Shown one piece after another: positions 51,594 to 53,132 of a DNA stretch of 64,000 bases. Both the position numbers and the translations under genes were made by a program. Position 1 is the first letter of the stretch, and each line of letters begins with the position of its first letter. Source of the stretch: Candidatus Nezhaarchaeales archaeon (GTDB taxonomy: Archaea; Thermoproteota; Methanomethylicia; Nezhaarchaeales; WYZ-LMO8); the NCBI GenBank assembly GCA_038887515.1, contig JAWAKK010000001.1, positions 384,001-448,000 on the forward strand. Direction: 5' to 3'. A model generated the notes under the pieces. That model ran no database searches, was not told where the DNA came from, and worked only from the letters and a program-made list of their open reading frames with translations.

Positions 51594-51607
51594 GAAAGGT
51601 TTATTTT
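51594..51607 (+). promoter_or_regulatory. BRE/TATA-like promoter of the yhhQ-queC leader
   Basis: GAAAGG-TTTATTTT ~25 nt before the GC-rich leader. Confidence 0.55.
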
Positions 51608-51628
51608 CAGGCCTTAAAGGACCTTCAA

Positions 51629-51741
51629 GGGGTATAGACCCCCGGCGGGTTGAGCTCCGCCGTTACTCTAAATGCGGCGAAGCCCCAATGAGGGCTAGCT
51701 AAGGGAGAAATCAACCTCTCCCACTGAGAGGTGGGAGGTTG
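51629..51741 (+). ncRNA. Structured 5' leader, candidate riboswitch
   Basis: Several hairpins and alternative pairings; one helix buries the RBS GTGGGAGG and the TTG start. Confidence 0.55.
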
Positions 51742-52395
51742 CCTGGTGAGGGTACTCGAATAATATTAACGTCAACATTTACCGCGGCTCTAGTAGTAGC
51801 CAACATAGCGGCCTCGAAGATTGTACAGTTTTGGTGGCTGACGTTTCCAGCCGGTACTTTAGCCTATTGTATCACTTTCCTCTGTACAGATTTGTACACA
51901 GAATTTTTTGGCAAACGCGAAACTCAGTTTGTTGTTCTTGCAGGCTTTGTAGCGAACATCCTCATGACGGTCTTGATCCAAGCATCTATAATCGCTCCAA
52001 TCGCTCAGTTCCAAGAAAGTTACCAAGAAATATACGGAAGAGTTCTAGGCTCTACATGGCGCATCGTGCTTGCAAGCATGGTAGCCTACATAATCTCGCA
52101 GAGCCACGACGTCTGGGCGTTCCACTTTTGGGGTAAGCTAACTAAAGGAAAGCATCTGTGGATACGTAACAATGCTTCAACAATGGTTAGCCAAGCTATG
52201 GATACTTTGATATTCACGTTCATAGCGTTCTGGGGGGTCATTGATATAGCTAGCCTGTTTAGCATGGCATTCACGCTCTACATTGTCAAATGGGTTGTAG
52301 CAGTTCTGGATACACCCTTCTGTTATCTAGGCGTTTACTTGATCCGTAGGTTGACGGGTATGAAGCCCATATGGTTTAGAGGGGAGACGGTTTGA
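51739..52395 (+). CDS. yhhQ: Queuosine/7-deazaguanine precursor transporter (YhhQ/COG1738)
   Basis: ANIAASK, TFLCTDLYTEFFG, RIVLASMVAYIISQSHDV, WIRNNASTMVSQAMDT. Confidence 0.9.
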   Translation: MPGEGTRIILTSTFTAALVVANIAASKIVQFWWLTFPAGTLAYCITFLCTDLYTEFFGKRETQFVVLAGFVANILMTVLIQASIIAPIAQFQESYQEIYGRVLGSTWRIVLASMVAYIISQSHDVWAFHFWGKLTKGKHLWIRNNASTMVSQAMDTLIFTFIAFWGVIDIASLFSMAFTLYIVKWVVAVLDTPFCYLGVYLIRRLTGMKPIWFRGETV

Positions 52396-53132
52396 AGAAA
52401 GTGGTATCCTTAGTCAGCGGAGGACTTGACAGTACGAGTTATGCAGCACTGTGGAAGCATAGAGGCTACGATGTTTACCCAGTAATATTTGATTACGGTC
52501 AAAAAGGACGTAGAGAGGTTGAGGTGGCAAAGAGGTTGAGCATGATTATAGGGTTTGAAGAACCCCTCGTTCTAAACGTTTCATCTCTCAAGAGTGTGTG
52601 GTTGAAAACGCAGCTCCTAGATGAGTTAGTAAAAGTCGAGGAGAACTATAGCCCCACGGTAGTGGTGCCCATTAGAAACGTGGTCTTCATAACGATAGCT
52701 TGCGCGTACGCTTTGTCCATTGGAGCTGATATCGTGGCCTATGGGGCACATCTTAACGATATCGCTACTCGGGCAGATACTGGTGAACCGCTTTATCCGG
52801 ACTGTCATCCGAACGTTGCGTTGGCCTTAGAAGAAATAATAAGAATAGCTCATTTCCCCGTTGGAGCAAAGAAGTTAGAGGTGTGGAGTCCGGCGAGAGA
52901 AGGCTTTACTAAAACTCAGGTTCTGAAGAAGGGTTACGAGTTGCTAGGAGATTTAATATACGAAACTTGGAGTTGCTATCTCAGTGATTCGATCCACTGC
53001 GGTACATGCGAGTCCTGTATTAATAGACATAAAGCATTCATAGAAGCTATGGTTCCAGACAAAACTCGTTATAAAGAACATTCAAAGATTCATGAAAAGT
53101 GTTTTAGTGGAGATTGTGGTGTTAATCCTTAG
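52392..53132 (+). CDS. queC: 7-cyano-7-deazaguanine (preQ0) synthase
   Basis: SGGLDST, FDYGQ, VPIRN, YPDC, TWSCY...HCGTCESC. Confidence 0.92.
   Translation: MKKVVSLVSGGLDSTSYAALWKHRGYDVYPVIFDYGQKGRREVEVAKRLSMIIGFEEPLVLNVSSLKSVWLKTQLLDELVKVEENYSPTVVVPIRNVVFITIACAYALSIGADIVAYGAHLNDIATRADTGEPLYPDCHPNVALALEEIIRIAHFPVGAKKLEVWSPAREGFTKTQVLKKGYELLGDLIYETWSCYLSDSIHCGTCESCINRHKAFIEAMVPDKTRYKEHSKIHEKCFSGDCGVNP

Follow-up and report, generated by a model that had tools for sequence, protein, structure and literature searches.

Organization of the yhhQ-queC locus

The 64,000-nt stretch of DNA analyzed here, referred to below as the window (Candidatus Nezhaarchaeales archaeon, contig JAWAKK010000001.1, positions 384,001–448,000 of the forward strand), contains two adjacent genes of 7-deazaguanine metabolism, yhhQ and queC, which are preceded by a leader of approximately 100 nt (51629–51741, plus strand; coordinates are those of the window). 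Comparison with related loci revealed that this leader is a real, conserved and structured cis-regulatory element. The yhhQ gene (51739–52395, plus strand; COG1738/Vut_1; Pfam PF02592, E 3.7e-52) has a TTG start codon and encodes a transporter of 7-deazaguanine precursors. The 7-cyano-7-deazaguanine synthase gene queC (52392–53132, plus strand; Pfam PF06508, E 9.4e-42) shares its first 4 nt with the end of yhhQ. On the other side, a 276-nt intergenic region separates yhhQ from a divergent pyruvate kinase gene (50068–51462, minus strand).

The putative promoter of the leader is an A/T box resembling the B recognition element (BRE) and TATA element of archaeal promoters (AGAAAGGTTTATTT, 51594–51607; AGAAAGGTTTATTTT, 51594–51608; plus strand). 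Within five orthologous loci the block AAARKTTTAT is the sole conserved block upstream of the core, and most copies of the leader have a YTTAW box 35–48 nt 5′ of the first conserved hairpin (P1). The yhhQ start codon position is also kept in the orthologs, being TTG in four of them and GTG in the fifth (by eye, from the alignment). The RNA of 51620–51745 folds with an energy of −53.9 kcal/mol (z −3.04; 0/200 shuffles equal or better); a longer, 151-nt version folds less convincingly (z −2.06; 5/200 shuffles as good). A first-pass annotation, made from the letters of the window, had listed the A/T box, three hairpins, an 11-bp helix and the TTG start, all of which were recovered at the same positions. 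No reads were mapped from ~3% of each of two metatranscriptomes belonging to the study of the matching DNA run, a result that has no bearing on expression or on the transcription start.

Conservation, fold and distribution of the leader

A YhhQ protein search of 41 related genomes identified four close orthologs (70–80% identity). At these loci the leader is nearly invariant from CGGCGGG to the start codon, and the flanks diverge with the exception of the AAARKTTTAT box. Identity to the window's own genome (G000) is 81–93% in the aptamer, 70–78% in the coding sequence and 53–67% in the upstream 60 nt, i.e. the leader is more conserved than the coding sequence.

The distribution of the motif (designated M1) was examined with two covariance models, R1 (the leader) and R2 (the aptamer only), and with a degenerate DNA pattern. 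R1 detected a single copy in the window's own genome and copies in 11/62 genomes of its class. The pattern matched 23 loci in GTDB representative genomes (7 archaeal, 16 bacterial) and 37 metagenome loci, and 39 of these 60 were confirmed by R1 at E≤1.7e-7. The archaeal loci are labeled by their records as Ca. Nezhaarchaeales, Ca. Methanomethylicia/Methanomethylicota or “uncultured Nitrososphaerota”. The 16 bacterial loci were rejected as chance matches, none being significant with R1 (the best of them, L025, scored 21 bits and lies inside a 390-aa open reading frame, ORF). A match in genome G140 was likewise discarded (44 nt, 26.9 bits, no que gene nearby). In a second class of the same phylum, R2 copies are present in 4/151 sampled genomes and, within one order of that class, in 5/151 genomes, all of one genus. 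Other archaeal phyla were covered by the strict DNA pattern alone, which divergent copies would escape. In total, 41 distinct aptamer sequences were collected from the window's class, the second class and metagenomes. Conservation and covariation in relatives had been set beforehand as a test of the proposed regulatory RNA, and both were found in these copies.

The fold common to the copies (all elements on the plus strand) begins with P1, a hairpin of the sequence CGGCGGG-UUGAGC-UCCGCCG (51643–49 paired with 51656–62), whose first pair varies (CG in 35 sequences, AU in 4, GC in 1) and whose pairs 2–6 are identical in 41/41 sequences. It is followed by the linker J1/2, UUA (51663–51665; consensus UYA, conserved in alignment A9), and by a long irregular arm, P2-P2a-P3 (51666–51707). 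The arm is composed of P2 (CUCU 51666–69 with GGAG 51704–07), the conserved bulge AAAUG (51670–74; consensus RRAUG), the pair C51675-G51703, P2a (GGC 51676–78 with GCU 51698–700) and P3 (AGCCC 51681–85 with GGGCU 51692–96), the last closed by the loop CAAUGA (51686–91; consensus RAUGR). P2a and P3 are separated by an internal loop, GAR opposite UA, of variable sequence. A nearly invariant single-stranded linker, AAAUCAACC (51708–51716; alignment A9), joins the arm to the downstream hairpin P4, and is also kept in copies located before queT, where pairing with the start region is impossible. On its 5′ side P1 is abutted by an optional hairpin, P0 (51629–51642; GGGGU 51629–33 and ACCCC 51638–42, loop AUAG). 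Variable hairpins in this position occur in 26/39 distinct upstream segments, compared to 8.4 expected from shuffles, and their stems differ among copies (GGGC/GCCC, GGAC/GUCC, GCUGGC/GCCAGC, GAGG/CCUC).

Comparison with relatives thus bears out the hairpins that the first-pass annotation had drawn at 51643–62 (P1) and 51681–96 (P3), and hairpins similar to the one it had drawn at 51629–42 recur; two helices, P2 and P2a, had been missed. Compensatory changes were observed in 14 of the 21 aptamer pairs (41 sequences), with 96.0% of cells paired; when P4 is added (33 sequences) the count is 19 of 32 pairs. None of 500 shuffles reached the observed level of aptamer pairing (slid controls, 49–54%), although such counts overstate the support, since the sequences are related, a small number of hot-spring metagenome series supplied several of them, and most of the alignments were fitted to the model. 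RNAalifold, applied to a MAFFT alignment that was not fitted to the model, returned the same P1, P2, P2a and P3.

Several further contacts were considered. Position 51664 (the Y of UYA) and position 51681 (the first base of P3) are CG in 17 sequences, UA in 15, UG in 5 and other combinations in 4. This possible contact (Y41-R60) was picked post hoc from a mutual-information scan of ~800 column pairs, and it weakened when four sequences were added (non-pairs rising from 2 to 4), which suggests that it be treated as a lead only. Pairing of UCCGCCG with GCGGCG (51675–80), present in the single-sequence minimum-free-energy fold, was rejected, the second segment changing without compensation in L041, L043 and L061 (by eye). 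A search for a pseudoknot partner of AAAUCAACC in the P1 and P3 loops gave no consistent complementarity. A K-turn (L7Ae site) in the P2a/P3 internal loop was ruled out by eye on the basis of loop size and variability, as judged against the K-turn consensus.

Three copies, all located before queT, depart from the common form. A degenerate copy at L113:51–131 (G012, contig C87; R2 score 13.2 bits) keeps the 3′ half, with the GAUGA loop, AAGGGAGAAAUCAACC and P4, and has a diverged P1 region. In L022:1501–1640 (G007) an extra 8-bp helix is inserted between P2 and the AUG bulge. In the copy at L089:1501–1580 (G196) the 5′ AUG bulge is missing, and GAUGA is found 3′ of the junction in its place.

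The P4 hairpin (51717–51741; CUCCCACU 51718–25 paired with GGUGGGAG 51730–37, loop GAGA), supported by both folding and covariation, would constitute a sequestor of the ribosome site. In the window copy it encloses the Shine-Dalgarno (SD)-like sequence GGGAGG (51733–38) and the UUG start codon (51739–41). Compensatory changes were found in 9/12 of its pairs, 88% of cells are paired, and a SD-like purine run (GGAGG, GGUGAGG or similar) is present on its 3′ strand in 33/33 sequences. In the window copy CAACC (51712–16) additionally pairs with GGUUG (51737–41). This corresponds to the 11-bp helix of the first-pass annotation, CAACCT(CT)CCCAC (51712–24) with GTGGGAGGTTG (51731–41), of which the P4 part (51718–37) is conserved and the outer CAACC/GGTTG part is confined to yhhQ-type copies, being unpaired in 8–16 of 33 sequences. 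The full helix is specific to these copies because their UUG or GUG start codon abuts GGGAGG and pairs with the CAA of the linker; in queT-type copies the start codon lies a few nucleotides after P4.

Two pairings had been proposed to compete with this helix. The first, GGTTGA/TCAACC, is not conserved: of 31 sequences, 21 and 16, respectively, cannot form its central pairs. The second, GGGAGA/TCTCCC, can form in 90.3% of cells, but shows no compensatory change (202/500 shuffles were as good) and is the minimum-free-energy choice in few copies only. No oligo-T tract was seen downstream of P4 in the window sequence, and translational control is therefore the likelier mode.

Downstream genes, a second leader and the predicted ligand

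The gene context of the motif is highly uniform. In 48 of 50 true hits the first downstream ORF encodes either YhhQ (15) or QueT (33; Pfam PF06177), and in the remaining two the downstream DNA is absent. YhhQ and QueT are unrelated transporter families. The next gene usually encodes QueC or an ATP-binding cassette (ABC) ATPase of the energy-coupling factor (ECF) type. Copies in the second class likewise precede QueT or YhhQ genes. In bacteria, according to the accessible part of PMC5372724, both families are linked to the salvage of queuosine precursors and are under the control of preQ1 (7-aminomethyl-7-deazaguanine) riboswitches.

Two genomes of the second class (G233, loci L087 and L090; G213, loci L088 and L091) carry two copies of the motif each, located before YhhQ paralogs; one copy is then followed by a gene for a distant QueC-like PP-loop protein (27% identity). 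Five other genomes (G015, G018, G021, G025 and G033; loci L006–L009 and L011) in family f4 encode distant Vut_1 homologs with 23–27% identity to the YhhQ of the window. Neither M1 nor the second leader described below was found at these loci by R1 or R3, and these proteins may have another substrate or be regulated differently.

QueT is encoded in 37/62 genomes of the window's class, and most of its queT genes therefore lack M1. Among 20 queT loci without M1 (L099–L118; e.g. L099:466–553, minus strand), a second leader of ~60–65 nt, designated M2, was seen immediately 5′ of queT; loci L119–L156 also represent it. The M2 consensus reads GGCGGG-UGA-GUGG-loop CUCCCAC-CCGU-UCCGCC, followed by an A-rich linker and CCCG-GAGU-YGGG-AGG. 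A covariance model of M2 (R3) gave matches in 22/62 genomes of the window's class, 26/151 of a phylum sample and 89/151 of the second class, and QueT is encoded by the first ORF in 35/37 aligned M2 loci. An Rfam search with 12 related M2 loci returned no relevant match. Helix P1 of M2 covaries, and its loop CUCCCA forms a pseudoknot with the SD region UGGGAG, in which 3/7 pairs are compensatory.

The two leaders occur in the same phylum and before the same genes (QueT, with QueC often next), and both contain the GGCGGG...UCCGCC helix, the anti-SD sequence CCUCCCAC and a linker rich in U and A. M2, however, is shorter, its anti-SD belongs to the loop of a hairpin, from which it forms a pseudoknot with the SD, and it is much more common, as the count in the second class shows; R2 scores M2 sites at only 4–7 bits, and the models cannot align M1 with M2. 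Within the window's class both leaders were found in G014 only, with M1 before yhhQ-queC (L017) and M2 before queT (L140). The queT match of this genome holds an in-frame TGA. That the same salvage genes are preceded by two distinct conserved leaders strengthens the riboswitch interpretation of both.

The composition of the pathway was used to predict the ligand. G000 encodes an archaeal-type tRNA-guanine transglycosylase (TGT; contig C2, 148197–149159). No match to QueD (PF01242) was found in its contigs C1 and C2 (genome 94% complete), and the best match to QueE (TIGR03365) scored 29 bits, compared to a cut-off of 206 bits. The organism thus seems to rely on the salvage of 7-carboxy-7-deazaguanine (CDG) or 7-cyano-7-deazaguanine (preQ0). 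In five genomes with the motif before queT (completeness 69–100%) no QueD match was found either, and the only QueC matches, of 19–26 bits, cover the N-terminal portion of the profile. These organisms would therefore have to import preQ0 itself, whereas CDG would be a further usable substrate where the operon is yhhQ-queC or queT-queC. Since preQ0 is the compound common to all these genomes, it is predicted as the most likely effector, with the archaeosine base, CDG and preQ1 as other possible ligands.

Two further genes lie beyond queC in the window. A gene encoding a fusion of a PhoH-like ATPase with a KH domain (53129–54289, minus strand) is convergent to queC, with stop regions overlapping by 4 nt, and an archaeal Nre gene is located at 54615–56003.

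Proposed mechanism and comparison with known riboswitches

Several of the features by which riboswitches are generally recognized are present in M1: a conserved structured domain with covariation, an expression platform overlapping the ribosome site (the covarying P4, with its SD-like strand in every sequence examined), and a position in the predicted 5′ leader of genes for one metabolite. The leader is very likely tied to the control of 7-deazaguanine salvage, and it probably senses a metabolite directly. The region 51629–51741 is accordingly best read, with a probability of about 0.7, as the 5′ leader of the yhhQ-queC mRNA acting in cis as a candidate riboswitch of an undescribed class, preQ0 being its most likely ligand. 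A switch acting on translation, the core proposal of the first-pass annotation, is supported by the covarying structure, by its occurrence only before genes of two 7-deazaguanine transporter families and by the SD-like strand within P4.

In the proposed mechanism the sensing part would consist of P1, the UYA linker and the long irregular arm (P2, the RRAUG bulge, P2a, and P3 with its RAUGR loop). This would be followed by the conserved AAAUCAACC strand and by P4, which carries GGGAGG and, in the window copy, UUG on its 3′ strand. Binding of the ligand would hold P2 and the linker in place, keeping P4 closed and lowering the translation of both the transporter and QueC; the element would be an OFF switch, a direction that we infer. 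When the ligand is absent, the 3′ strand of P2 (GGGAGA) may pair with the 5′ strand of P4 (UCUCCC) and free the ribosome site.

Several observations weigh against this interpretation. Many queT genes of the class are not preceded by M1. In yhhQ-type copies GGGAGG directly abuts the start codon (51733–51741), and this zero spacer is an unusual SD geometry; in L090, moreover, the ATG is located ~40 nt past P4. P4 is stable alone, since minimum-free-energy folding of the 3′ part yields it in most copies, and because the proposed anti-sequestor shows no compensatory change, the opening of the switch is a step that we infer. P1 and many junction bases never vary and so yield no covariation information. 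To these points may be added the relatedness of the sequences and the fitting of most alignments, mentioned above.

Archaea are also able to regulate translation via RNA-binding proteins such as L7Ae. M1 could accordingly be an operator for such a protein (e.g. a regulator of the archaeosine pathway), which would close or open P4 without the RNA sensing a metabolite itself. The invariant P1 stem and the conserved RAUGR and RRAUG loops could be protein contacts, but no candidate regulator gene accompanies the motif (its neighbors all encode a transporter, QueC or an ABC ATPase), the internal loop of the arm is not a K-turn by the comparison described above, and the many conserved unpaired junction bases are typical of small-molecule aptamers. 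This alternative, the best of those considered, is unlikely. An RNA thermometer or stability element, a ligand-free structured 5′ untranslated region that masks the ribosome site, is less probable still. The organisms come from hot-spring samples, and P4, the minimum-free-energy fold in most copies, masks the SD-like sequence by itself; however, P4 would then suffice, leaving unexplained the ~75 nt with conserved junction bases and covarying P2, P2a and P3, as well as the single occurrence of the motif per genome and its restriction to genes of 7-deazaguanine salvage.

The pathway might also be sensed indirectly, the leader serving as a mimic or substrate of the archaeosine TGT, or pairing with a tRNA. 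G000 does encode a TGT, and the leader could fold differently after exchange of a base, although this is pure speculation and highly improbable; no resemblance to tRNA was seen and ARAGORN found no tRNA in the window. Least probable of all is control of yhhQ by translation of a tiny upstream ORF opened by the conserved AUG at 51672–74: read by eye, the bulge retains this AUG and several copies have a stop 6–13 codons further on (in the window, 51672–51699, 8 codons ending at UAG), but no SD-like sequence was seen before it, L089 is without it, and the peptides differ completely between copies (by eye), as the helices change by compensatory substitutions at the RNA level.

Returning to the riboswitch interpretation, we lean slightly towards a broader form of it, in which the window element belongs to a family of archaeal riboswitches that sense preQ0 and fold differently from preQ1-I, -II and -III. 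To our knowledge, few riboswitch classes have been reported in archaea, all of them shared with bacteria. If the interpretation is true, M1 would be the first class confined to Archaea, as far as searched, and would imply that metabolite-sensing RNAs evolved independently in archaea. It would also provide a new RNA fold for 7-deazaguanine recognition, a possible preQ0-selective sensor and, for Methanomethylicia and related lineages that are uncultured or newly cultured, a regulatory handle. Taken with M2, it would imply that control of archaeosine-precursor salvage by RNA is common across Thermoproteota, the two leaders representing alternative scaffolds around a shared GGCGGG/UCCGCC helix. 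The data also support a salvage lifestyle of these small genomes, which encode QueC and the transporter and gave neither a QueD match nor a convincing match to QueE.

Comparison with known families was carried out with Rfam 15. No family matched the leader at E≤10, none reached the gathering score anywhere in the window, and eight divergent loci gave no match at E≤5, preQ1-I, -II and -III included. The covariance models of preQ1-I (RF00522), preQ1-II (RF01054) and preQ1-III (RF02680) all failed to recognize the element, which upholds the earlier impression, gained by eye, that it fits none of these classes. The possibility, raised in the first-pass annotation, that the region is an independent known noncoding RNA found no support, as no Rfam family was identified and ARAGORN detected neither tRNA nor tmRNA in the window.

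PreQ1-I is a ~34-nt pseudoknot found in bacteria. The window element, in comparison, is archaeal, has ~100 nt and five helices, and gives no match to the preQ1-I model. The two are alike in preceding 7-deazaguanine genes, including yhhQ/COG1738 and queC-type operons (in the accessible part of PMC5372724), and preQ1-I often masks the SD sequence (accessible parts of PMC5372724, PMC10622847 and PMC11625349). Full-text searches of the open literature, and the accessible parts of PMC5372724, PMC9723716, PMC5737381 and bioRxiv 10.64898/2026.10.21.760802, yielded no archaeal preQ0 or preQ1 riboswitch, although the supplementary motif lists of PMC5737381 could name a similar motif; the word “archaea” does not occur in the accessible portion of a 2024 review of the preQ1 family.

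PreQ1-II (the COG4708/queT motif) is bacterial and was described from Streptococcaceae, judging by a title cited in PMC5372724. It precedes queT, as do 33/50 hits of the window's motif (the window copy itself precedes yhhQ), and its folded RNA includes the ribosome site; its architecture is different and its model does not match. PreQ1-III, with a larger aptamer and the ribosome site in a separate downstream helix (accessible part of PMC10018353), resembles the layout of aptamer plus P4, but again there is no model match, and its conserved bases were not seen in the window element. In its predicted function the element thus works like a preQ1 riboswitch while failing the model tests of classes I–III, and it is filed as a candidate new class.

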